From a bacterium (lineage in GTDB: Bacteria > Patescibacteriota > Dojkabacteria > JAKAPS01 > JAJZLI01), in the NCBI GenBank assembly GCA_021846685.1, contig JAJZWL010000004.1:7899-71898 (forward strand): DNA of 64,000 nucleotides. Reading direction: 5' to 3'. Shown piece by piece: positions 5,833 through 53,082 of the stretch. Position 1 is the stretch's first letter, and the number at the start of each line of letters is the position of its first letter. The notes beneath the pieces were generated by a model. The model saw only the letters and a list, made by a program, of their open reading frames with translations. It was not told the DNA's origin and ran no database searches. The translations under genes and the position numbers were made by a program.

Positions 5833-6936
5833 ATGAAATATGCAATAGTACATGATGATTTTATGCAAAAATTTGGAGGAGCAGAGAAAGTTGTTTATTT
5901 GCTATCTAAAATTTTTAAAGAATCAGATGTAGTAACATCTATATCTACTCAGGATAATCTTGATAAATTTGAAAGGTTGAAAACCTCTCGATTTCAGAAA
6001 TATAAATTTATAAAAAAGCATTCAAAAAAGCTTTTTTTCTTATATCCTGTAATATTTGAGGGTTTGAATTTTGATGAATATGATATAGTGATATCCTCTT
6101 CCTCTCGGTTTGCACATGGTATTATTACTTCTCCTAGTACATTACATATTTGTTATATGCATTCTCCCTCTAGATATATTTGGGATTATGCAGATTATAT
6201 GAAAATGCAAAAATTATCTTTTTTACAAAAAGGTCTTTTACCTTTTATGGTATCTTATTTAAGAGTATGGGATTATATAGCTGCTCAAAGAGTAGACTAT
6301 TTTATAGCAAATTCTAATTATACAAAAGCAAGAATTAAAAAATTTTACGGACGAGATAGTATAGTAATTTATCCTCCTGTAGAAATTGAAAAATATTTGA
6401 AATTAAAAAATTTGCAATATAAATATTATTTATATGCGGGTAGAATTGTAGAATGGAAAAGATTAGATATACTTATAGCTTCATTTAATAAATCTGGAAA
6501 GGAATTGCATATTGTAGGTAACGGAGAAGCATCATATACAAATTCTCTTAAAAAAACTGCTTTAAAAAACATTAAATTTTTTGAGAATTTAAATGATGAG
6601 GAACTCTTGAATAAATATAGAGATTGTAAAGCTGTGATTTATCCTCAAAAAGAAGATTTTGGAATTATTCCTGTTGAAGCTCAAGCTTGTGGAAAACCAG
6701 TTATAGCATATTCCAAGGGAGGGGTTTTAGAGACTATAGAGGATTTAAAAACAGGGATTTTTTTTAATGATCAGACTGAAAAATCTTTAACAGATGCAAT
6801 TGTTAGATTCGAAAAAATAGATTTTAAAAAAGAAGATTGTAGGAAATCTGCAAGGAGATTTTCAGAAGAAGTATTTAGTAAGAGTATTGTAAAGATCACA
6901 CAAGAATTATGGATAAAAAATACAAAATTGCAATAG
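5833..6936 (+). CDS. Glycosyltransferase family 1
   Basis: 367 aa; 'EDFGIIPVEAQACGKPVIAYSKGG' GT1 motif; paralogous to the next gene. Confidence 0.8.
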   Translation: MKYAIVHDDFMQKFGGAEKVVYLLSKIFKESDVVTSISTQDNLDKFERLKTSRFQKYKFIKKHSKKLFFLYPVIFEGLNFDEYDIVISSSSRFAHGIITSPSTLHICYMHSPSRYIWDYADYMKMQKLSFLQKGLLPFMVSYLRVWDYIAAQRVDYFIANSNYTKARIKKFYGRDSIVIYPPVEIEKYLKLKNLQYKYYLYAGRIVEWKRLDILIASFNKSGKELHIVGNGEASYTNSLKKTALKNIKFFENLNDEELLNKYRDCKAVIYPQKEDFGIIPVEAQACGKPVIAYSKGGVLETIEDLKTGIFFNDQTEKSLTDAIVRFEKIDFKKEDCRKSARRFSEEVFSKSIVKITQELWIKNTKLQ

Positions 6937-22487: not shown

Positions 22488-23396
22488 ATGAAAATCTGTA
22501 TTTTTTCTAGATCAAATACTATCGAGGATGAAGCAATTAAGAGAGAATCTGAAAAAAGAGGTCATGAGTGTAGTATTATAAATCCAAAATCATTAATATT
22601 TAATTTTAGTGGTGATTTAAAAATTACTACCAATGAGGGTATAGATCTTACATATTTTGATGTTTTTGTACCTAGAGTATTTTCTATAACAGAAACAATA
22701 GAAGGAAAAAAATATAAAAGAAATTCCAAGAACCTTATTATTAAATATTTATTGGATCACGACAAGATATTTTTAGATAAAAATTATGACCACAAAAGGG
22801 AAACTCAGGGAAAAATATATCAGTTATCTAGATTTAACAACTTTCATATTCCTATATTTCCTACTGTTTTTTTATATAGAACAGATAAAAAATATATAGA
22901 AAGTTCATTATTACAAGCTAAAATAAATCCTCCATATATTATCAAAGATGTAGCTGGTTCAAAGGGAGAGAATATATTTAAATGTGATAGTGTAGATGAA
23001 ATTAAAGACAAGATTGAACAATATAATAATGTTTATTTTATGATTCAAGCATTTCATAAAATAGATCATGATTTGAGAATTTTAGTATTAGGCAATAGGG
23101 TATTAGGTGCAATAGAAAAAATTCATAAAAGTGGAGATTTTAAAGGTAATATTTCTCAAGGAGCAGATTCAAAAATTTTCAAGTTATCAAATGAATTAGA
23201 AACTCTAGCTTTAATGACAAATAATATTTTGCAATATGATTTTACTGGTGTAGATATTGCAATTGTGGGGAATAAAAATTATATTTTAGAAGTTAATGAG
23301 GTTCCTCAATTTAGAGGTTTTGTTGAAACTACTGGATTGAATGTAGCTTTAGAAATAGTTAAATATTTAGAATATTTATATAACACATCTTTATGA
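22488..23396 (+). CDS. RimK-like ATP-grasp ligase (alpha-L-glutamate ligase family), paralog 1
   Basis: 302 aa; 'GDFKGNISQGADSKIF' matches RimK 'DFRANLHRGG'; ATP-grasp 'ILEVNEVPQFRG' (E-x-N). Confidence 0.65.
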   Translation: MKICIFSRSNTIEDEAIKRESEKRGHECSIINPKSLIFNFSGDLKITTNEGIDLTYFDVFVPRVFSITETIEGKKYKRNSKNLIIKYLLDHDKIFLDKNYDHKRETQGKIYQLSRFNNFHIPIFPTVFLYRTDKKYIESSLLQAKINPPYIIKDVAGSKGENIFKCDSVDEIKDKIEQYNNVYFMIQAFHKIDHDLRILVLGNRVLGAIEKIHKSGDFKGNISQGADSKIFKLSNELETLALMTNNILQYDFTGVDIAIVGNKNYILEVNEVPQFRGFVETTGLNVALEIVKYLEYLYNTSL

Positions 23397-24313
23397 AAAT
23401 ATGTATAATTAATCACAATAATAAAAAGAATGATATTTCAAAAGGTCATAGAACAAAGTCTATATCAGCAGAGGCCTTTAAAAAAGGATATTCTGTAGAC
23501 ATTATTGATAGTTATGATTTAGTTTTTAGTTTTGATGAGAATTCTTCATTATCAATATCTACAATACAAGGAAATTCTCTATTAGATTATGATGCATATA
23601 TAATATATTCAGTAGGTATCATAGAAGATAAAAAGGCTAATATTGAAAAAGTCGTTATTGCAGATTATTTAATATTTCATAATAAATTAGTATTTAACTA
23701 TTCAGCTGTTATCTCTTCTGTATATAAGAGTAAGCTTTTAGATTTTTATAAAATGCAAAAGCTTGGAGTTCCTATTATAAAGACCTTTTACGTAGAAGAT
23801 CACAAAGATATTGAAAGTATTAAAAAAATCATAAAAGATAATGATTATATGTTCCCATTAATCCTTAAACCAGTTAATGGTACTCAAGGGCGGGATATAT
23901 ATAAAGTTCAAAATATAGATGAAATTGAAAATCTTATAATATCTCAAAAAAATAAGAGTTTTATGATTCAGGAATATATCCCAATAATCCATGATTTAAG
24001 AACTATTGTATTTTCTGGGGAAATATTAGGATCTATAGATAAAATTCCAATGAATGGCGATTTTAGGGGTAATATTTCACAAGGAGCTAAGGCAGTGGAA
24101 TATAAGCTTTCAGATGAACTAAAAGCTATATCATTAATGGTTGCAAATTCTTCAGGATCAGTTATATCGGGTGTGGATATATGTATTTCTAATAATAGTT
24201 ATTTTATTCTTGAAGTGAATGATAATCCAGAATTCAAAGGGTTTGCTAATTGCCTAAATATAAATGTTCCTCAAATTATTCTAAATTATCTAGAAAAATT
24301 TCAAATTAATTAA
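23393..24313 (+). CDS. RimK-like ATP-grasp ligase, paralog 2 (tandem duplicate)
   Basis: 306 aa; 'GDFRGNISQGAKAVEYKL', 'ILEVNDNPEFKG'; both paralogs start MKICI; 4-nt overlap. Confidence 0.65.
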   Translation: MKICIINHNNKKNDISKGHRTKSISAEAFKKGYSVDIIDSYDLVFSFDENSSLSISTIQGNSLLDYDAYIIYSVGIIEDKKANIEKVVIADYLIFHNKLVFNYSAVISSVYKSKLLDFYKMQKLGVPIIKTFYVEDHKDIESIKKIIKDNDYMFPLILKPVNGTQGRDIYKVQNIDEIENLIISQKNKSFMIQEYIPIIHDLRTIVFSGEILGSIDKIPMNGDFRGNISQGAKAVEYKLSDELKAISLMVANSSGSVISGVDICISNNSYFILEVNDNPEFKGFANCLNINVPQIILNYLEKFQIN

Positions 24314-24362
24314 TTTAATACTCTAAATTAAACTTTATTTAAAGCTTATAATCTATGTTCCT

Positions 24363-24391
24363 TGACAGAATAAATATGAAGTATTATATTA
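24363..24391 (+). promoter_or_regulatory. Sigma70-like promoter of the mraZ/dcw operon
   Basis: TTGACA (24363-24368), 17-nt spacer, TATATT (24386-24391). Confidence 0.5.
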
Positions 24392-24400
24392 AATTCAGTT

Positions 24401-24430
24401 GTGGTGATAAGTGGTGATAAGTGGTGATAG
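24401..24430 (+). promoter_or_regulatory. Candidate MraZ operator: three tandem 10-bp direct repeats GTGGTGATAA/GTGGTGATAA/GTGGTGATAG
   Basis: Perfect 10-bp periodicity of GTGGT + 5-nt spacer just downstream of the -10 box and upstream of mraZ; matches the known MraZ architecture of GTGGG-like direct repeats with 5-nt spacers. Confidence 0.6.
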
Positions 24431-24446
24431 TTTATACAATAAGTTT

Positions 24447-24881
24447 ATGTTAATAGGAGAATATACATCTAAATTACAAGATAAAAATAGGATAGCAATG
24501 CCTAAGAAATTTAGATCTGAGATTGGGGATAAGATAATCATCACTAAAGGGTATGAGAATTGTTTAATAGTAGTGCCTGAAAATAAATGGGATTTGATGG
24601 TTAAAGATATAGTATCAAGACCTTTTACAATAACAAATGCACGGGATACTTCGAGGTTTATATTAGGATCTGCAGCTGAAGCATATTTAGATGATCAAGG
24701 ACGATTTGTAATTCCTCAAACATTAATATCGCATGCAGAATTGGATGGAGAAGTTTCATTTTTAGGATTAGTCTCTTGGATTGAAATTTGGAGCAGCATA
24801 AAGTGGAAAGAGAGAGAAAGTTATTTAAGAGATAATGGTGCAAATATAGCAGATGAGTTGTCAAAATTAGATGTATCATGA
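24447..24881 (+). CDS. mraZ: Transcriptional regulator MraZ
   Basis: 'MLIGEYTSKLQDKNRIAMPKKFR' and second repeat 'YLDDQGRFVIPQTL' (two DXXXR-type SpoVT/AbrB-like halves); the track ORF starts at 24411 inside the operator repeats, so the start is moved to the MLIGEY Met. Confidence 0.8.
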   Translation: MLIGEYTSKLQDKNRIAMPKKFRSEIGDKIIITKGYENCLIVVPENKWDLMVKDIVSRPFTITNARDTSRFILGSAAEAYLDDQGRFVIPQTLISHAELDGEVSFLGLVSWIEIWSSIKWKERESYLRDNGANIADELSKLDVS

Positions 24882-25782
24882 CACAGTTCTTTTACAAAAT
24901 ATAATAAATGAGCTTGAAATCAAAGAAAAGGGGGTATATGTAGATACTACTTTAGGAGGAGGAAGTGTAAGTTTTGAAATACTTAATAGGCTTAAAGGTG
25001 GAAATCTCATTAGTCTTGATATAGATACAGATGCTATTAATAATTTTAAATTAGAATTTGAAAAGAAATATAGCAAAAAATTTATATCAAATAGTATGAC
25101 TTTAGAAAGCAATACTATAACTCTAGTAAATGAGAATTTTTCAAAGCTAAAAGAGATTATACTCAATTTAGGTAAGGAAAAGTTAAAGATAAATGGAATA
25201 ATTTATGATTTAGGGGTTTCATCCTTTCAAATAGATAATCCTAAAAAAGGATTTAGCTATATGTCAGATTCTGATTTAGATATGAGAATGGACAAAAGAT
25301 TGAAAGTTACTGCCCGAGACCTCTTAAATGGAATGTATGAAAAAGAATTGAGTAGTATGTTTGAGAGATATTCTGAAGAACCCTTTTCAAAAGACATAGC
25401 AAGAAATATTGTAAAGTTCAGAAAAACAAAAAGTATAGAGAGGTCTAGTGATTTGGTATCAATAGTAAAGAGAAGTATTAGAGGTCAAGCTTATCTCTAT
25501 CACCATGTATCAAGAATATTTCAGGCATTAAGAATCAAAGTTAACAATGAGTTGGGCGTTTTGAGTGATTCTCTGCTTCTTTTGCCTGATATTCTTGAGA
25601 GTGGTGGTAGAGTAGTATTTTTAACTTATCATTCTGGAGAGGATAGAATTATAAAACACTATTTTCTCCACAATGATAACTTTATATCTTTGTATAAAAA
25701 ACCTGTGACTCCTAGTGATGAAGAAATTTCAAAAAATAGGAGAGCTAGGTCAGCTAAAATGAGAGTATATGAAAAAAAATAA
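24871..25782 (+). CDS. rsmH: 16S rRNA m4C1402 methyltransferase RsmH (MraW)
   Basis: 'YHDTVLLQNIINEL', 'VYVDTTLGGGSVSFEIL', 'FLTYHSGEDRIIK' (RsmH FHSLEDR motif). Confidence 0.85.
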   Translation: MYHDTVLLQNIINELEIKEKGVYVDTTLGGGSVSFEILNRLKGGNLISLDIDTDAINNFKLEFEKKYSKKFISNSMTLESNTITLVNENFSKLKEIILNLGKEKLKINGIIYDLGVSSFQIDNPKKGFSYMSDSDLDMRMDKRLKVTARDLLNGMYEKELSSMFERYSEEPFSKDIARNIVKFRKTKSIERSSDLVSIVKRSIRGQAYLYHHVSRIFQALRIKVNNELGVLSDSLLLLPDILESGGRVVFLTYHSGEDRIIKHYFLHNDNFISLYKKPVTPSDEEISKNRRARSAKMRVYEKK

Positions 25783-26071
25783 AAAATCTAACAAAATATT
25801 ATTAACACTTATATTTACGCTATTTTTAATAGTTGTAGGTCAATTGTATCTAATGAATAATATAGATTCATATAATTATACTGTAGAAAGATTAATATCT
25901 CAGTATAATACATATAATGTAAAGAATCAGAATCTTCAAGGAGAAATCTCTTCAAATCAATCATTAATTAGTATTAAAAATAATCTTTTGAAAAAGGGAT
26001 ATAAAAATGTAAATAACGTTAACTATACTCCTTCTAATGCATATAGTTTTAATGTATCATCATCCAAATGA
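25769..26071 (+). CDS. FtsL-like small bitopic cell-division protein
   Basis: 100 aa, one TM 'ILLTLIFTLFLIVVGQLYL'; positioned between rsmH and ftsI. Confidence 0.4.
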   Translation: MKKNKKSNKILLTLIFTLFLIVVGQLYLMNNIDSYNYTVERLISQYNTYNVKNQNLQGEISSNQSLISIKNNLLKKGYKNVNNVNYTPSNAYSFNVSSSK

Positions 26072-27789
26072 ATAGTGATTTATTTAAGAAAAAGGCATTT
26101 TTCTTAATTTTAATAGTGTTTATTGCATTTTTGATTTTAATAGTAAAATTATTTGATCTTCAAGTATTAAATAATGCACAGTACTCTATTGAAGCATCTG
26201 CGGAAAATTCTTTTTTAACTAGTATGCCTGCATTACGAGGTATTATCGAGAGTTCAACTGGAAGTATACTTGCAGATAATACTCCAGTATATAAAGTATA
26301 TGTTTCTTTAAATAATGTAGTAAACAAAAAAAGTTTTGAAAATGAAGTATATTCTGTTTTAGGAATAAAAAAAAGCTATATGCAATCACTATTTAATAGT
26401 AAATTAGTTTGGGTAAAATTATCTTCAGATATAAGTATTTCTCAAAAAAATAAATTATCGAATCTTCCATCTTTAACATTTGTGCAATATGAAAGTCGTT
26501 ATTATCCAAATAAACAATTATTTGCACATGTATTAGGATTTTTGGGTAGAGATTATAAAGGTCAAGTGAGTGGTTTTTATGGAGTAGAAGGTTATTTTAA
26601 TGGAGCTCTTGTTGGAAAAGCAGGATATACAAAAGGTATTCAATCTGCTTCTGGTATTCCTTTACTTTCTCAAAATTATCAATTTGTTCCTGCTCAAAAT
26701 GGAGATACTATTAAATTAACTGTAAATCCAGCAATTCAAAATATTGTGTCTTCTAGTGTAAATTATTGGTCTAAAAAAGAGAATGCAACTTCAGGTGCTG
26801 CTATTGTAATGAATCCTAAAACAGGTGCAATTTTGGCAATGGCCAGTTACCCTAGTTTTAATCCAAATACATATTGGAAATATAAATATTCTAATTTTCA
26901 AAATAATGCAATTTCTTTTATTTATGAACCAGGTTCTGTTGGTAAATTAATTACTGTGTCTGCTGCTTTACAAACAGGAGCAATGACTCCAAGTACAACA
27001 GTAAATGATAAAACTGGAGTATTTTCAGTTGGAGGGCAAAATATATATAACTGGAATAAAGCCCCTGATGGAGTAATGAATTTAGGAAGGATACTTCTTT
27101 TATCTTCTAATGTGGGAGCTAGTATGGTGGCAACTCAATATCTTTCTTCAAAGTTGATGTATGAATTTTCAAAAAAATATGGATTTGGAAATTTAACAGG
27201 AATAACTTTACAGGGAGAAGAAACTGCTAACATCCCACCATATAAGACTTGGAACAAATCTAATCTTGCTACTGATTCATTTGGACAATTTGTATCAGTA
27301 TCTCCATTACAGATATTAGATGCTTATGATGCTCCTGCAAATGGAGGTAAAATTATGCAACCTTATATAGTACAAAGTATTACTAATTCAAAAGGATCTA
27401 CTGTAAATTTTAAACCTAAAGTTCTATATAATCCTATCTCTCCTACTGTTGCTTCAGAAATTAATACTATGCTTGTAGGTACTACCCAAGGAGAACCAAA
27501 TTGGGCTTTACATAAAGAAGGTGTTGGGCAATATATGCCTATTATTGCAGGTAAAACGGGTTCTGCCCAAATGCCATCTAAAAAACATCCAGGACAGTAT
27601 AGTACTACTAATTATGTTATGACATATGTGGCCTATGCTCCAGCCAATAATCCTAAATTTATACTTTTAACAATGATGAATTCTCCCCATAAACCATTAT
27701 TGAATCAATACTATGCAGCAACTACTGCTTGTGTAGAGTGGGGACAGATAGCTTCAAAATTATTCCCATATTTTGGGATTGCTCCTTAA
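26068..27789 (+). CDS. ftsI: Class B penicillin-binding protein (FtsI/PBP2-type transpeptidase)
   Basis: 573 aa; N-terminal TM; SxxK 'GSVGKLITVS', SxN 'LLLSSNVGA', KTG 'AGKTGSAQ'. Confidence 0.85.
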   Translation: MNSDLFKKKAFFLILIVFIAFLILIVKLFDLQVLNNAQYSIEASAENSFLTSMPALRGIIESSTGSILADNTPVYKVYVSLNNVVNKKSFENEVYSVLGIKKSYMQSLFNSKLVWVKLSSDISISQKNKLSNLPSLTFVQYESRYYPNKQLFAHVLGFLGRDYKGQVSGFYGVEGYFNGALVGKAGYTKGIQSASGIPLLSQNYQFVPAQNGDTIKLTVNPAIQNIVSSSVNYWSKKENATSGAAIVMNPKTGAILAMASYPSFNPNTYWKYKYSNFQNNAISFIYEPGSVGKLITVSAALQTGAMTPSTTVNDKTGVFSVGGQNIYNWNKAPDGVMNLGRILLLSSNVGASMVATQYLSSKLMYEFSKKYGFGNLTGITLQGEETANIPPYKTWNKSNLATDSFGQFVSVSPLQILDAYDAPANGGKIMQPYIVQSITNSKGSTVNFKPKVLYNPISPTVASEINTMLVGTTQGEPNWALHKEGVGQYMPIIAGKTGSAQMPSKKHPGQYSTTNYVMTYVAYAPANNPKFILLTMMNSPHKPLLNQYYAATTACVEWGQIASKLFPYFGIAP

Positions 27790-27830
27790 AACTTGATAAA
27801 TAGTTCTTTTTTTGCAATAATTTTCTCTAT

Positions 27831-29123
27831 ATGTATAAATTTGAAATAGAAGGACAACATCCTTTGTCTGGGGAAGTAAGTTTATTAGGTGGAAAAAATA
27901 ACGTCATTCCTATAATTTGTGCTACATTATTAACAGATCAACCTTGTATTATTAAAAATATTCCCAAAATATCTGATGTTAGAGTTTTAATAAAAATATT
28001 AAGAATTCTCGGATCAGACATAAAGTATATTACTCCTTCAGAACTTAAGATTGTTAATAAAAATTTATCTATAGATAAAGATAAAGAAAAATTAATATTT
28101 GAAAATATTCAAAAAATGAGAGGTTCTATATTATTAATAGCACCATTACTTTATAGATTTAAAAATATCTCATTTATACATCCAGGAGGGGATAAAATAG
28201 GAGGAAGAGATCTCTCTGCTCATTTTTCTGGATTCAAAAAACTTGGTGTAAATATTGAATTTACAAATACTAATTTTTCTCTTTCTGGTAATCTAAAACC
28301 TAATTATATCTTCTTATATGAACCATCAGTTACTGCAACAGAAAATCTTCTAATGCTAAGCGCTATTATAAAAGGAGAATCAATTATTGAAAATGCAGCC
28401 TGTGAACCTCATGTAAAAGATTTATGTATAATGCTAACCAAAATGGGTGTGCAGATTGAAGGAATCGGTACAAATATTTTAAAAATTAAAGGAGATCAAA
28501 ATCTATCTGGAGTAGACTTTACAGTATCTTCAGATGAAATTGAGGCTGCAACCTATATTATATTTGCGTTAATGTCTAAAGGTGAGATAAAAATACAAAA
28601 TATAGATACATTTGTTATGAAATCAATTTTTTATGTATTTGATATGTTTAATATAAAATATACAATTGGAGATAATTATATTTATATTAAAAATAAACAA
28701 GATTTATATTATAAAGGTAGTTTAGGATTTGGTAATTTAGGTATATATACCCATCCATATCCTGGGTTCCCTACAGATCTTCTGTCATTAGTGATATCAT
28801 TAGCTACGCAAGTTAAAGGTGAAGTAATATTTTTTGAAAAAATGTATGAGAATAGAATAGATTTTGCACTAGAACTGAAAAAAATGGGTGCAACATTTAA
28901 TATACTAGATACTCATAGAATTTTAGTAAAAGGCCCAGTAAAACTTCACTCAGCTAATATTTTTTCTAGAGATATAAGATCAGGAGTTGCTTATCTTTCT
29001 GCTATGTTATCTGCATCTGGTATAAGCACTTTAACTGGTATAGAAAATATAGATAGAGGATATCCTAATATTGAAAAAACATTAGATAGTCTAAATGCTA
29101 AAGTTAAAAGAATAAAGATATGA
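27831..29123 (+). CDS. murA: UDP-N-acetylglucosamine 1-carboxyvinyltransferase MurA
   Basis: 430 aa; 'FEIEGQHPLSGEVSLLGGKNNVIPIICATLL' matches the MurA N-terminal signature; EPSP-synthase fold length. Confidence 0.85.
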   Translation: MYKFEIEGQHPLSGEVSLLGGKNNVIPIICATLLTDQPCIIKNIPKISDVRVLIKILRILGSDIKYITPSELKIVNKNLSIDKDKEKLIFENIQKMRGSILLIAPLLYRFKNISFIHPGGDKIGGRDLSAHFSGFKKLGVNIEFTNTNFSLSGNLKPNYIFLYEPSVTATENLLMLSAIIKGESIIENAACEPHVKDLCIMLTKMGVQIEGIGTNILKIKGDQNLSGVDFTVSSDEIEAATYIIFALMSKGEIKIQNIDTFVMKSIFYVFDMFNIKYTIGDNYIYIKNKQDLYYKGSLGFGNLGIYTHPYPGFPTDLLSLVISLATQVKGEVIFFEKMYENRIDFALELKKMGATFNILDTHRILVKGPVKLHSANIFSRDIRSGVAYLSAMLSASGISTLTGIENIDRGYPNIEKTLDSLNAKVKRIKI

Positions 29124-29896
29124 AAAAAAGTTTAAGAAAAGTTATAAAAACTATTTTATCTAAATATTCAAAATTATTAATCCTAAAACATAGAATAAAA
29201 TTTATTACTATTTTTGGAAATTATAATCAAGATGTTGCAGTGGAGGGTATCTACTCAATACTTAAAGATAATGGAGTTAAGACGAGCCGTAATTATGTAG
29301 ATTTTGAAAAAGATATTGATGTTTCTTATTTTATTATAACTGATAAAGAAAATTTTACTTTTTTCGGATTCTTATATCTTTTAATAAAATATCCCATTAC
29401 TCTCTTTTCTAAGAAATATGATGATAAAGTAATAATATTAAATTTATCTACTTTTAATCCAGGAGTTGTTAAATATTATTCTGAATTTATACATTCTGAT
29501 ATCTTTTTACTCTTAGATGTTACTAAAAAATCTGTAATTTATGAAGATCAAATAATGAAAGATTCTCAAAAAGAAGCAATTGTTATAATCGATGGAGATA
29601 CTTCTTCTAGAAAAATGATAACCTTTGATTTTAATAAAAAAATATTAAGTTTTGGTACAAATCCTAGTAATGACATAATGTATAAAACATCTGCTTCAAA
29701 AATAGATATTACGTATAATGAGAACCATATAGAAATTCAGAATAATTTTAAAAATATAGATCCTAGAATACTTATAGCTTGTTTACTTACTAGTATTTCA
29801 TATGGAATTAGTTTTCATAATGCTGTTTCAAGTCTAGAAAAATTTTATATGCCAAATAGAGACTTTCAAAAAGTTTTTGAAAAATTCATGAAATAA
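29120..29896 (+). CDS. Hypothetical protein, possibly a degenerate Mur-ligase-like domain with a lost P-loop
   Basis: 258 aa; 'ITIFGNYNQD' sits where Mur ligases have GTNGKTT; a C-terminal A/S/G-rich helix resembles the Mur ligase middle-domain end; no intact ATP-binding motif. Confidence 0.25.
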   Translation: MKKSLRKVIKTILSKYSKLLILKHRIKFITIFGNYNQDVAVEGIYSILKDNGVKTSRNYVDFEKDIDVSYFIITDKENFTFFGFLYLLIKYPITLFSKKYDDKVIILNLSTFNPGVVKYYSEFIHSDIFLLLDVTKKSVIYEDQIMKDSQKEAIVIIDGDTSSRKMITFDFNKKILSFGTNPSNDIMYKTSASKIDITYNENHIEIQNNFKNIDPRILIACLLTSISYGISFHNAVSSLEKFYMPNRDFQKVFEKFMK

Positions 29897-29921
29897 GTAT
29901 ATTGTAGTATAGTATTAATAT

Positions 29922-31154
29922 ATGAAAAAGATATATCATTATTTGAAATCTAATGTATTGAGAGTGCCATTTATATTTGATAGATATAAATGTAAATTTA
30001 TAGCAGTTACAGGTACTGATGGGAAGACGACTGTATCAACATTATTGTATGATATGATGAAGAATGAAGGATTAAAAGTGGCATGTTTTACTACAATAGG
30101 TATAACTTATCCTGAAGGATTTATAGATACTGGGCTTCATACCACAACATTAGATACTCTTGAATTAAGAAAAAATCTTAAAAAATTTAAAAATTATGAT
30201 TTTGTAATCTTAGAAACAACTTCTCATGCTATTGATCAAAATAGAATTGCTGGATTAAAATTTAGTGCTATTTTATATACTAATATAACAGAAGATCATC
30301 TAGATTATCATAAAACTTGGGATAGATATGCATATGCCAAATCTAAATTAAAAAATTATTTAACTCATTCTGGTTTTGCTGTCATTAATATGGATGATGA
30401 AAAATCATTTAAATACCTAACAAATAGATTTACAAATATAAATTGCTATACATATTCTGTATATAAAAAAAATGCAACAATTAAAGCATTTAATGTGACA
30501 GAAAACAGTTTTGATGTTAAATTGGAAAATAAGACTTACTCTTTTAAAACTAAACTTTTTGGTGAATATAACATACAAAATTCATTACTATGTATATTTA
30601 CTGCATTAAAATTTGATATAAATGAATCTAGTATTCAAAAAAGTTTGCTATATCCTCCTTCAATAGAAGGTAGATTTGATGTTGTATCAAAAAAACCACT
30701 TATTATAGTAGATTTTGCACATACTGCTAATGCAATATATAATATCTTAGAAAATTTATCTGTTCTTAAAAAAAATGGTAAAAATAGATTAATTACAATT
30801 TTTGGTGCACCAGGAGATAGAGATAAATTTAAAAGACCTGATATGGGTAAAAATGCCTCTCTTTTTTCAGATATCATAATTATAACTGAAGATGATCCTC
30901 GTTTTGATAACCCAAAAGATATCTATACAGATATTGTACAGAATATAGATACTAAACTCTTTAAAAAAAATATTAATTTATATCAAATCGACAAGAGGGC
31001 AGATGCAATTAATTTTGCTTTAAAAATAGCACGAAAAAATGATATTATTGCAGTTTTAGGAAAGGGTCATGAAAAATCATTAGCAATCAAGGGAAAAGAA
31101 ATTCCTTGGTCAGATAAAGAATTTATTTTAAAAAAAATAAAAAATGGAAAATAA
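29922..31154 (+). CDS. murE: Mur ligase, MurE-like central + C-terminal domains (no recognisable N-terminal domain)
   Basis: 410 aa; P-loop 'AVTGTDGKTT' at residue ~30; 'GLHTTTLDT', 'ETTSHAIDQNR', 'TNITEDHLDYHKTWDRYAYAKSKL', 'DFAHTANA'. Confidence 0.6.
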   Translation: MKKIYHYLKSNVLRVPFIFDRYKCKFIAVTGTDGKTTVSTLLYDMMKNEGLKVACFTTIGITYPEGFIDTGLHTTTLDTLELRKNLKKFKNYDFVILETTSHAIDQNRIAGLKFSAILYTNITEDHLDYHKTWDRYAYAKSKLKNYLTHSGFAVINMDDEKSFKYLTNRFTNINCYTYSVYKKNATIKAFNVTENSFDVKLENKTYSFKTKLFGEYNIQNSLLCIFTALKFDINESSIQKSLLYPPSIEGRFDVVSKKPLIIVDFAHTANAIYNILENLSVLKKNGKNRLITIFGAPGDRDKFKRPDMGKNASLFSDIIIITEDDPRFDNPKDIYTDIVQNIDTKLFKKNINLYQIDKRADAINFALKIARKNDIIAVLGKGHEKSLAIKGKEIPWSDKEFILKKIKNGK

Positions 31155-32541
31155 AAGAATACATTTTATAGGTATATGCGGAAGTGCTATGGCTCCTATT
31201 GCCGTAGAAATGAAAAATAAAGGATTTAATGTTTCAGGTTCAGATAAAGGATTTTTCCCTCCTATATCTTTATATCTTGAAAAACACAATATGGGGATCC
31301 AACTCGGATATAAAAAAGAGCATATCACAGATGATATTAGTTTTGTTATTTTAGGAAATACTGTAGGAGAAAAGAATCCAGAATTTCTTGAAGCTAAGGA
31401 GAAAAATATACCAATATTGTCATATCCAGAACTTTTAGAACAATATCTTGTAAAAGAAAATTCAATTGTAATTACAGGTGAATATGGAAAGACAACTATA
31501 ACGTCATTTTTAGCTTTTGTATTTTCTAAGTTGAATATAAATCCTTCATATATGTATGGTGGAATATCTTTGAATCTTGATGATAGCGTAAAAATAAATG
31601 ATTCTAATTATTCAATTATTGAAGGAGATGAATATAATGCATCTCCAATAGATAAAAATTCCAAATTTCTATATTATCATCCCAAATATTTAATATTAAC
31701 ATCACTTTTGTGGGATCATGTAGATTTATTCCCAAAAGAATCTGATTATATTGATTCATTTAAAAAACTTATCTTAAAATTGCCAGAAGATGGTATTCTT
31801 TTTATTAATAAAGATGATATCAGTACTAATAAAATCTATCCTATATCTAATAAAAATATAAAAATCATAAATTATTCTGTTAAAGATAAAAGTACAGAAT
31901 ATTATGGTGAAATTGTAGAATATAAAGATGGTGTAATCAAATTTTTGGTTAATAATACCTATAAATTTGAAACACCTCTCTTGGGAGAACATAATATATC
32001 TAATCTTGTTGCAGGAATATCTCTGTGTCTTACACTTGGTATTGAATACAATAATTTATATTCAGTAGTCAAAGAATTTTTAGGAGCAAAAAGAAGATTG
32101 GAAATAAGATATAGATCAGATAAACTAATTGTTATTGATGATTTTGCTCATTCTCCTTATAAAATCAAAGCTTCAATCCAAGCTGTAAAAAAAAGTTTTC
32201 CAAATTCTAATATTATCTCAATTTTCGAACCACATTCTATGAGTTCAAGAGATAAAAAAACAATACAGTGGTATGAAAATATTTTTAATAATTCAGATAA
32301 AGTTATAATTACTGATATATATAAAAAAGAAGCTTTATCAGAAATCACAAGATTAAATAGTGAAGATATAGTTAAAGTAGTAAGAAATAATGTTCAAAAC
32401 ACTATATATACAAAGAATATAGATCTTATTGATTCAATAGAATCATCATTAACAGGGAATGATATAGTTTTATTTATGTCTTCTGGAAGTTTTCAAGGTA
32501 TGTTAGAGAAATATGTAAATAAACTAATTAGTTCTAAATAA
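31144..32541 (+). CDS. murC: UDP-N-acetylmuramate--L-alanine ligase MurC (or Mpl-type murein peptide ligase)
   Basis: 465 aa; 'IHFIGICGSAMAPIAVEMKNKGFNVSGSD' MurC N-terminal Rossmann; 'ITGEYGKTTITS' P-loop. Confidence 0.75.
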   Translation: MENKRIHFIGICGSAMAPIAVEMKNKGFNVSGSDKGFFPPISLYLEKHNMGIQLGYKKEHITDDISFVILGNTVGEKNPEFLEAKEKNIPILSYPELLEQYLVKENSIVITGEYGKTTITSFLAFVFSKLNINPSYMYGGISLNLDDSVKINDSNYSIIEGDEYNASPIDKNSKFLYYHPKYLILTSLLWDHVDLFPKESDYIDSFKKLILKLPEDGILFINKDDISTNKIYPISNKNIKIINYSVKDKSTEYYGEIVEYKDGVIKFLVNNTYKFETPLLGEHNISNLVAGISLCLTLGIEYNNLYSVVKEFLGAKRRLEIRYRSDKLIVIDDFAHSPYKIKASIQAVKKSFPNSNIISIFEPHSMSSRDKKTIQWYENIFNNSDKVIITDIYKKEALSEITRLNSEDIVKVVRNNVQNTIYTKNIDLIDSIESSLTGNDIVLFMSSGSFQGMLEKYVNKLISSK

Positions 32542-51447: not shown

Positions 51448-53082
51448 CTATTTGATACTTATTGTTTGTTCTATACTTAGATTTTGAATAAATTCTCTAT
51501 CATGAGAAACAACAAGTAAGGCTCCCCTGTACGATGAAATTGCAGTTTCTAGAGCATCAGTAGTTGTTATATCTAAATTATTTGTAGGCTCATCCAGTAT
51601 TATAATATTAGATTGATTTGCTACTATTCCTGCCAGTATAATTTTTGCTCTTTCTCCTCCACTCAATTTATATGCAGGAGTATATGTAATAGATTGTCTC
51701 TCAATATTGAATTTTACTAATAAATGCATTATTTCATTTTGTGGTATATTGGGGCATAAAGTTCTTAGATTGTCTAGTGCATTGGAGTTCATTAGCGGTA
51801 ATGATTGATTTTGATCAATATATCCTATACGTATGGAAGGGCTTAACCTTATTTGTCCTTCTTTAATAAATTTATTACTTCCAAGAACAGCATTAATAAT
51901 TGAAGTTTTGCCACTGCCATTATTACCAATTAATGCAATTCTTTCTTTTCCATATATATTAAAACTTATTGGCCCAATAGTTGATATAGAATTATTATGA
52001 GTATATTCAATAACTAAATTTTCAACACTAATTAATCTATTGCTAGAATCTAATTTTTCAGGCTCTGTAAATGTGAAATTAAGACTAATTGGTTCTTCAG
52101 GAGGATCTACTCTTTTCACTTGTTCAGATTTAGTTTTTAAAGAAGTTAACCTACTCGATATACTATTGCTAGCCTTTTCCTTACGAAAATTTGTATTTAA
52201 TTTATCATTGTCAGTTCTTGATCTGTTAGAACTTACTGATACAACATTACTATTCATCTTCTTTATTTGCTTTTCAATTTGTTTGCATTTTTTTACATAT
52301 TGATCGTGATGATGGGTGTCAGATTCGTACCTATTTTTTTTAGCCTCGACATATTCATCATATCCAAGAGTATATTCTTGAACACCATTATTTCCTCCAA
52401 GCAACTCAATTATTTTTTTTGATGCATTTCTCAAAAAACGTCTATCATGTGATACTAATACAAAACTTGCACTAGAGTGTTCTATATATGTTTCTAGTAC
52501 TATAATTCCTTCCTGGTCTAAATTATTAGTAGGTTCATCTAATAATAATAAATCATGTTTATCTGCAAAAATAGCAGCGAGCGCAATTTTAGTACGTTGT
52601 CCGCCTGAAATTTCTCCAAGACGAAGATTAGTATCAATTTCTCCCACACCAGCCTTTTTTAATGATTTTTTTAATCTCTGATGAAAATTATATACTTCTA
52701 GTTGAGTATATTTATCTTGAGCTTCTTGATAAATAAGTAGTACATTATCGTCCTCTTTTTCTGTAGATAGTTTATTACAAGCTTCCTCAAATTTATTTCT
52801 AGCTTCTTGTACCCCAGTGGTTTCTTCTATAAAATCATATACGGTATGGTCTAGCCAAGTACTAAAATCTTGTGGCATTAATCCAATTCGTAATCTCTCT
52901 GGATTAATAATTTCTCCACTTGTTGGTTGTATGTCTCCAACTAAAATTTTTAGTAATAAACTTTTTCCTACTCCGTTATCTCCAATCAATCCTATACGAT
53001 CTTTTGGATTAATATTAAAGTCTATATTAGAGAATATTTCTTTTCCATCAGTTTCATAACCGACCTCATGTACATTTAACAT
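51448..53082 (-). CDS. ABC-F family ATPase (tandem ABC domains, no TMD)
   Basis: 544 aa; domain 1 Walker A 'GDNGVGKS', signature 'ISGGQRTKIALA', Walker B 'LLLLDEPTNNLD'; domain 2 Walker A 'GNNGSGKTS', signature 'LSGGERAKIILA', Walker B 'IIILDEPTNNLD'; about 70-aa K/S/R-rich interdomain linker. Confidence 0.8.
   Translation of the reverse strand: MLNVHEVGYETDGKEIFSNIDFNINPKDRIGLIGDNGVGKSLLLKILVGDIQPTSGEIINPERLRIGLMPQDFSTWLDHTVYDFIEETTGVQEARNKFEEACNKLSTEKEDDNVLLIYQEAQDKYTQLEVYNFHQRLKKSLKKAGVGEIDTNLRLGEISGGQRTKIALAAIFADKHDLLLLDEPTNNLDQEGIIVLETYIEHSSASFVLVSHDRRFLRNASKKIIELLGGNNGVQEYTLGYDEYVEAKKNRYESDTHHHDQYVKKCKQIEKQIKKMNSNVVSVSSNRSRTDNDKLNTNFRKEKASNSISSRLTSLKTKSEQVKRVDPPEEPISLNFTFTEPEKLDSSNRLISVENLVIEYTHNNSISTIGPISFNIYGKERIALIGNNGSGKTSIINAVLGSNKFIKEGQIRLSPSIRIGYIDQNQSLPLMNSNALDNLRTLCPNIPQNEIMHLLVKFNIERQSITYTPAYKLSGGERAKIILAGIVANQSNIIILDEPTNNLDITTTDALETAISSYRGALLVVSHDREFIQNLSIEQTISIK

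Follow-up and report, generated by a model that had tools for sequence, protein, structure and literature searches.

A conserved array of phased GTGG boxes at the mraZ promoter of a Dojkabacteria dcw cluster: a candidate MraZ operator

The 64-kb window (the whole stretch of DNA analysed in this work) contains a dcw cluster of co-oriented, mostly overlapping genes in the order mraZ, rsmH, ftsL-like gene, ftsI, murA-like gene, a 258-aa open reading frame (ORF) and two Mur ligase genes (24447-32541, plus strand). The first gene, mraZ (24447-24881), encodes 144 amino acids from its true start ATG 24447, and its end is overlapped by rsmH (mraW; 24871-25782; PF01795, E = 2e-81). A 100-aa ORF at the position that ftsL occupies in dcw clusters and a gene for an ftsI-type penicillin-binding protein (PF00905 and PF03717) follow at 25769-27789; no Pfam match was obtained for the 100-aa ORF. 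The remainder of the cluster (27831-32541) consists of the murA-like gene, the 258-aa ORF and the two Mur ligase genes. The 258-aa ORF (29120-29896), flanked by murA and the gene for a 410-aa Mur ligase, had no Pfam match either, and the 410-aa ligase (29922-31154) matched with its middle and C-terminal domains while a match to the N-terminal catalytic domain was missing; these two ORFs may represent a Mur ligase that is either split or divergent. The dcw promoter is directly preceded by two tandem, overlapping genes for RimK-like ATP-grasp proteins (302 and 306 aa; 22488-24313).

The preliminary description of this DNA, made from the sequence alone, had called the first gene mraZ, and this assignment is confirmed by Pfam, by matches to solved structures and by the predicted fold. 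The 144-aa product matched PF02381, with its tandem SpoVT/AbrB-like halves, in two stretches (E = 2.2e-23). A sequence search of the PDB returned MraZ chains of Mycoplasma genitalium and M. pneumoniae with E values from 2.5e-18 (9qlr) to 9e-17, to which residues 1-102 align gap-free. An AlphaFold2 model of the protein (pLDDT 86, pTM 0.80) retrieved M. genitalium MraZ in a Foldseek search (9qlg_A; E = 1e-14, TM 0.81, rmsd 1.7 Å), and superposition on 9qlg, 1n0e and the DNA-bound structures 9r4j and 9sz7 gave TM values of 0.71-0.81. Residues Lys13, Arg15, Asp82 and Arg86 are invariant in an alignment of 26 sequences, and their positions align gap-free to the DNA-contacting residues of the M. genitalium protein. 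In the first DXXXR motif the acidic residue is shifted (Q11-D12 here, D11 in M. genitalium). The nearest named relatives of the protein come from Candidatus Dojkabacteria / candidate division WS6, which assigns the window to an uncultured patescibacterium within or near this group.

Related mraZ loci were collected from one genome per species. This yielded 80 loci from Dojkabacteria/WS6 and Patescibacteria with MraZ proteins of 48-85% identity, 79 of which had enough upstream sequence for promoter analysis. The array described below lies directly 5' of mraZ, and the six-frame ORF of this gene begins at GTG 24411, inside the second repeat. The repeats might thus be coding sequence that specifies the N-terminus of a 156-aa MraZ (predicted peptide MVISGDSLYNKF). 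The frame is indeed open from 24411, and in two NCBI assemblies, GCA_027425275.1 (DAIBVZ010000005.1) and GCA_021843725.1 (JAKBWE010000055.1), mraZ is annotated as a 156-aa product from that GTG. Against this, 25/25 aligned orthologues have the sequence M[LI]IGE where the ATG is located, 12 codons 3' of the annotated GTG, while N-terminal extensions are rare among them and unrelated to one another. No in-frame start occurs upstream of the ATG before a stop is reached in 59 of the 80 loci, and 55 of the 80 carry an in-frame stop two to five codons 5' of the ATG; the closest species (locus L001, MraZ 85% identical) has a TAA two codons upstream. With ATG 24447 as the start, residue 1 is also where the alignments to the Pfam model and to the M. 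genitalium protein begin. The GTG 24411 start in public MAG annotations is wrong, as the preliminary description had assumed, and it is highly unlikely that the repeats encode the N-terminus of MraZ.

The array consists of three 10-bp units on the plus strand, with GTGG cores beginning at 24401, 24411 and 24421, i.e. with start-to-start distances of 10 and 10 and 6-nt spacers after each 4-nt core. Candidate boxes 1 (24401-24410) and 2 (24411-24420, which contains the miscalled GTG start) both read GTGGTGATAA, a GTGG core followed by the spacer TGATAA, and candidate box 3 (24421-24430) reads GTGGTGATAG, in which the core is followed by TGATAG. Tandem Repeats Finder reported a period of 10 with 2.9 copies and 100% matches, and a second program (find_repeats) found three copies with identities of 100, 100 and 90%. 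Because the third unit ends with G instead of A, the units are identical at 29 of 30 positions and are not three perfect copies; three perfect units are found in L081 and L082, two near-identical public assemblies. Ten nucleotides (AAATTCAGTT) separate the array from the -10 hexamer of the upstream promoter P1, and 16 nt (TTTATACAATAAGTTT) separate box 3 from ATG 24447. Of the layout given initially, the three units, their 10-bp phasing, the promoter upstream and the distance of about 16 nt to the mraZ ATG were recovered, but the repeats had been called perfect, and the TTGACA hexamer begins one base before the start that had been given for the region.

A single 10-mer resembling GTGGTGATAA with at most one mismatch is unremarkable in this DNA (five found, 3.4 expected). 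The phased triple, in contrast to the single 10-mer, is unusual when compared with chance: GTGG-N6-GTGG-N6-GTGG occurs once in the 64-kb window when both strands are considered, and in 0/100 dinucleotide-preserving shuffles. A search of the window for a further MraZ target revealed no second site even when two mismatches were allowed (0.15 expected).

The best promoter match in the region, at 11 of 12 positions, is P1 with the -35 hexamer TTGACA (24362-24367), a 17-nt spacer and the -10 hexamer TATATT (24385-24390), both on the plus strand. Promoter-like hexamers are no more common than expected by chance in this DNA of 27% G+C (eight sites found, 8.5 expected from shuffles), so support for P1 has to come from its conservation in relatives. 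Upstream of box 1, at a distance of 20-55 nt, TTGAC is present in 76/79 relatives and TTGA in 79/79. The complete arrangement TTGACN, 17 or 18 nt, TANNNT was found in 76 of the 79, including 49 with the TG of an extended -10 element. The promoter hexamers proposed at the outset are present, 10 nt before the array, and they are conserved. A promoter-like site on the minus strand (24410-24383) has no gene to drive and was treated as a chance occurrence.

In 59 of these 76 relatives, box 1 begins 1 nt after the -10 hexamer. In three loci with long leaders (L008, L062 and L063), the boxes remain beside the promoter and not beside the ATG, i.e. the boxes track the promoter rather than the start codon. 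In one of these, L008 (2027-2050; 45% G+C, labelled Saccharibacteria), about 185 nt of G+C-rich leader separate the promoter and boxes from the mraZ ATG, perhaps owing to an insertion or to a join made in assembly. The array of the window and that of L001 follow the -10 hexamer at a distance of 10 nt, 9 nt (about one helical turn) more than in most relatives. If transcription starts at A 24397, a position predicted from geometry only (7 nt after the -10 hexamer, plus strand), the boxes fall at about +5, +15 and +25. With this 9-nt shift, the operator in the window and in L001 would be downstream of the predicted start and not over it.

Upstream of P1, a copy of a further element of the type CyTrTArT (CTTATAAT) is located at 24345-24352 on the plus strand, 17 to 10 nt upstream of the -35 hexamer. 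A profile of 74 distinct relatives anchored on TTGAC gave the consensus CcTgTAgt (CCTGTAGT) with up to 1.5 bits per position. Possible identities are a third -10-like hexamer, a binding site of another regulator and an UP-like element, and the sequence is possibly part of the regulatory region.

The preliminary description had suggested comparing the mraZ upstream regions of related genomes. Arrays counted as strict if GTGG-N6-GTGG-N6-GTGG occurred at most 150 nt from the ATG, and as relaxed if A or T was also accepted at the first position of a box. Three boxes at 10-bp spacing are present by the mraZ promoter in 79/79 species (65 strict, 13 relaxed and one strict at -208), although these loci are linked by phylogeny and do not amount to 79 independent events. 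The array at -208 belongs to L008 and directly follows a TTGACA promoter of its own. Outside mraZ promoters, no triple was detected on either strand of about 900 kb of flanking sequence; six doubles were present in this sequence, four of which correspond to one coding position inside mraZ. The consensus of the box unit in relatives is GTGG(T/C)(G/A)A(A/G)AA, with which GTGGTGATAA of the window agrees at nine of ten positions. In 77 relatives the core of box 1 showed G in 68 at the first position and T, G and G in all 77 at the following ones, the TGG positions being fixed by the anchoring pattern. The spacer positions between the -35 and -10 hexamers carry 0.0-0.2 bits. Since this spacer is saturated and neutral sites are therefore randomized, the boxes are held by selection and not by recent common descent.

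These comparisons also bear on the question of whether the array is a neutral, microsatellite-like tandem duplication that arose by replication slippage and came to lie upstream of mraZ by accident. In the window the whole 10-bp units, spacer included, are virtually copies of each other, as expected from slippage, and a concerted change of the three spacers separates the window (24401-24430, three units of the type GTGGTGATAA) from L001 (2963-2992, three units of the type GTGGTGAAAA), with GATAA in the former and GAAAA in the latter. This concerted difference suggests that the array is homogenized by slippage or conversion. Slippage may homogenize the units, yet it leaves their retention unexplained: GTGG cores are kept at 10-bp spacing in all 79 species even where the spacers are fully diverged, and such arrays are absent from the remainder of the flanking sequence. 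Functional constraint acts on GTGG(T)(G/A)A as the core, and the sameness of entire units arose recently in this lineage. A purely neutral origin is accordingly given hardly any credence here.

A different class of explanation places the function of the G-rich repeat in nucleic acid structure, i.e. in a G-quadruplex, in an RNA element or in a Shine-Dalgarno-like GGUGAU within the 5' leader. By its sequence, GGUGAU can pair with part of the 3' tail of 16S rRNA. Its last copy, though, stops 18 nt short of the AUG, and the TGAT is not conserved in relatives; a role as ribosome-binding site was rejected on account of this distance and this lack of conservation. Moreover, Shine-Dalgarno motifs are almost absent from the genome; in the window and the related loci, similar motifs precede 2/147 operon-first and 18/165 internal genes. 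The predicted leader RNA has a minimum free energy of -3.1 kcal/mol and is less structured than 200/200 shuffled sequences (z = +2.7), and an Rfam search over the window gave no match at the leader, the only hits being three tRNAs elsewhere. As the leader belongs to no Rfam family and folds worse than all shuffles, the RNA element was discarded, too. A G-quadruplex has been reported in a G-rich stretch after PmraZ of Staphylococcus aureus (PMC11796246). Here, however, there are three GG tracts with 8-nt loops, and the next GG is 32 nt downstream, so that the required four or more tracts are absent; this possibility was rejected for having too few G-tracts. Taken as a whole, an action through nucleic acid structure is extremely improbable.

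The reading as a binding site for MraZ agrees with what is known from other bacteria. Published MraZ operators consist of GTG(G/T) boxes with 6-nt spacers (PMC12957436) or of GTGG[A/T]G boxes with 4-nt spacers (bioRxiv 10.1101/2022.02.09.479790). Among the closest counterparts are the MraZ-binding repeats (MBRs) in Pmra of Bacillus subtilis (White et al.), whose 10-bp unit GTGG[A/T]G-N4 corresponds to GTGGTG plus ATAA in the array. The threefold repeat is unique in the B. subtilis genome, as it is in the 64-kb window. Three GTGG[A/T]G-N4 repeats are required for repression in B. subtilis, where the MraZ variants R15A and R86A are inactive (bioRxiv 10.1101/2022.02.09.479790). The two cases differ in that B. 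subtilis belongs to a different phylum and that the whole units are nearly identical here.

The operator of Mollicutes, AAAGTG[T/G], has the same 10-bp period; an A-rich spacer precedes each box and the transcription start is in or near box 1 (PMC12957436; Fisunov 2016 as cited in PMC8475190), which resembles the arrangement predicted here. In M. genitalium the β-sheet cradle of each subunit enters one major groove, where TG(T/G) is recognized by Lys13, Arg15 and Arg86; binding is lost when these are replaced by alanine, and the boxes are cooperative in both binding and repression (PMC12957436). The contacts of Lys13, Arg15 and Arg86 are seen in the cryo-EM complexes 9r4j and 9sz7, and the same residues are conserved in the protein described here, whose predicted fold agrees with TM values of 0.76-0.81. 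The Mycoplasma operator comprises four boxes, mostly with a GTGT core, as opposed to three boxes, all with GTGG, in the window; unlike Mycoplasma, the present organism produces peptidoglycan, and its dcw cluster is longer.

In Escherichia coli, MraZ is a dodecamer with GTGGG as core of its sites. The MraZ boxes in E. coli Pmra were reportedly described by Eraso et al. in 2014 (J Bacteriol 196:2053). According to PMC12957436 and PMC7761207, they are direct repeats downstream of the -10 hexamer of the dcw promoter that serve autorepression, which matches the placement found here; the E. coli leader, in contrast to the present one, includes a Shine-Dalgarno sequence. The repeats of E. coli and Burkholderia cenocepacia are located after the -10 hexamer and over the transcription start (PMC7761207). 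In PmraBc of B. cenocepacia, where binding was demonstrated by EMSA, repeats that follow the -10 hexamer overlap the start (PMC7761207), but they are four 7-nt repeats with 3-nt spacers and the leader is about 100 nt long, which differs from the array in the window.

Direct repeats with a period of 10-11 bp are also used by further families of regulators, and the boxes might accordingly be the operator of an OmpR/PhoB-type response regulator or of another AbrB-like protein. Yet the GTGG core, the 6-nt spacers, the presence of three copies, the position after the -10 hexamer and the linkage to mraZ together form the published signature of MraZ, and the contact residues of MraZ are invariant. 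A regulator other than MraZ is thus considered very improbable. From the sequence comparisons and by analogy with the characterized systems, the phased GTGG array is, with high probability, an operator through which MraZ represses its own synthesis at the dcw promoter. The autoregulatory operator initially put forward as a candidate is hence supported by conservation of the array, by the identity of mraZ and by agreement in core and spacing with published operators.

On the basis of these similarities, the MraZ operator is envisaged to work as follows. P1, with its consensus match and its conservation, would start transcription near 24397, and MraZ, as the first product of the operon, would assemble into a ring-shaped oligomer as seen in the M. 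genitalium cryo-EM structures. The β-sheet cradles (Lys13, Arg15 and Arg86) of three adjacent subunits would enter three successive major grooves, each reading the TGG of one GTGG box, with the boxes presented on one face of the DNA. Counted from the predicted start, the stretch occupied would span positions of about +5 to +34; in most relatives it would begin 1 nt after the -10 hexamer and would thus cover the start site. Occupancy by MraZ would block open-complex formation or early elongation by RNA polymerase at P1, and the outcome would be negative feedback of MraZ on mraZ-rsmH-ftsL-ftsI-murA-mur, by analogy with E. coli, B. subtilis and M. genitalium. Least certain among these steps is the sign of regulation, since MraZ has been reported to act as an activator in Mycoplasma gallisepticum (PMC12957436).

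A second promoter element, P2, might be located between the boxes and the start codon. A TANNNT hexamer at exactly -12 to -7 from the mraZ ATG is present in 51/78 distinct relatives, 49 of which also have TG at -15/-14, and most of the remaining relatives have a TGATATA-type element that is shifted by one base. In loci with box 1 at -36, the TG of P2 is the TG of box 3, and in those with box 1 at -46 the P2 element follows one unit after box 3. The geometry TGnTAnnnT could be that of an extended -10 promoter that starts on the A of the AUG and hence would give a leaderless mRNA. At the P2 position the window has TACAAT without TG (24435-24440, plus strand; -12 to -7 from the ATG), a candidate -10 hexamer that is speculative in the window itself, and L081 and L082 have TATAAT. 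The members of the closest clade (L001-L007) mostly lack a good P2 hexamer, and the element is missing from the loci with long leaders and from L019, the one locus with GGAGG. Before other operon-first ORFs of the window and the related loci, TANNNT at -12 was found in 11/147 cases, which is near background and without a peak. The P2 element therefore appears to be specific for mraZ, but the test is crude and the argument weak because it relies on guessed starts of these ORFs and includes many orthologous genes. Separately, several operon-first genes have TGnTATAAT a few nucleotides before their ATG, e.g. those at 5833 and at 51448-53082 on the minus strand.

As a tentative proposal, which we consider rather unlikely to be correct, the MraZ boxes of Dojkabacteria might be bracketed by P1 (TTGAC, 17 or 18 nt, TGnTAnnnT) and a leaderless P2 (TGnTAnnnT at -15 to -7), with one array shutting both promoters. 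The window would then retain a weakened copy of P2 (TACAAT). If true, this bracket would be a previously undescribed arrangement of operator and promoters for MraZ, and P2 would be an actual example of how a CPR lineage without Shine-Dalgarno sites expresses a gene from a leaderless mRNA.

The site at the mraZ promoter is strongly conserved, yet by its sequence it appears to be an ordinary example of a known element, a textbook MraZ operator, and the result leaves the knowledge of how MraZ works unchanged. What is gained is a corrected start codon where public MAG annotations place it inside the operator, and a comparative set from 79 species, GTGG(T/C)(G/A)A(A/G)AA in three copies, which could guide binding studies. 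A literature search revealed no link of MraZ to Patescibacteria or Dojkabacteria among the best-ranked 10 of 459 matching papers. With core, spacing and placement unchanged, the MraZ operator is extended here to a CPR lineage that has very few regulators, which supports the view that autoregulation of the dcw cluster by MraZ is ancient and near-universal.
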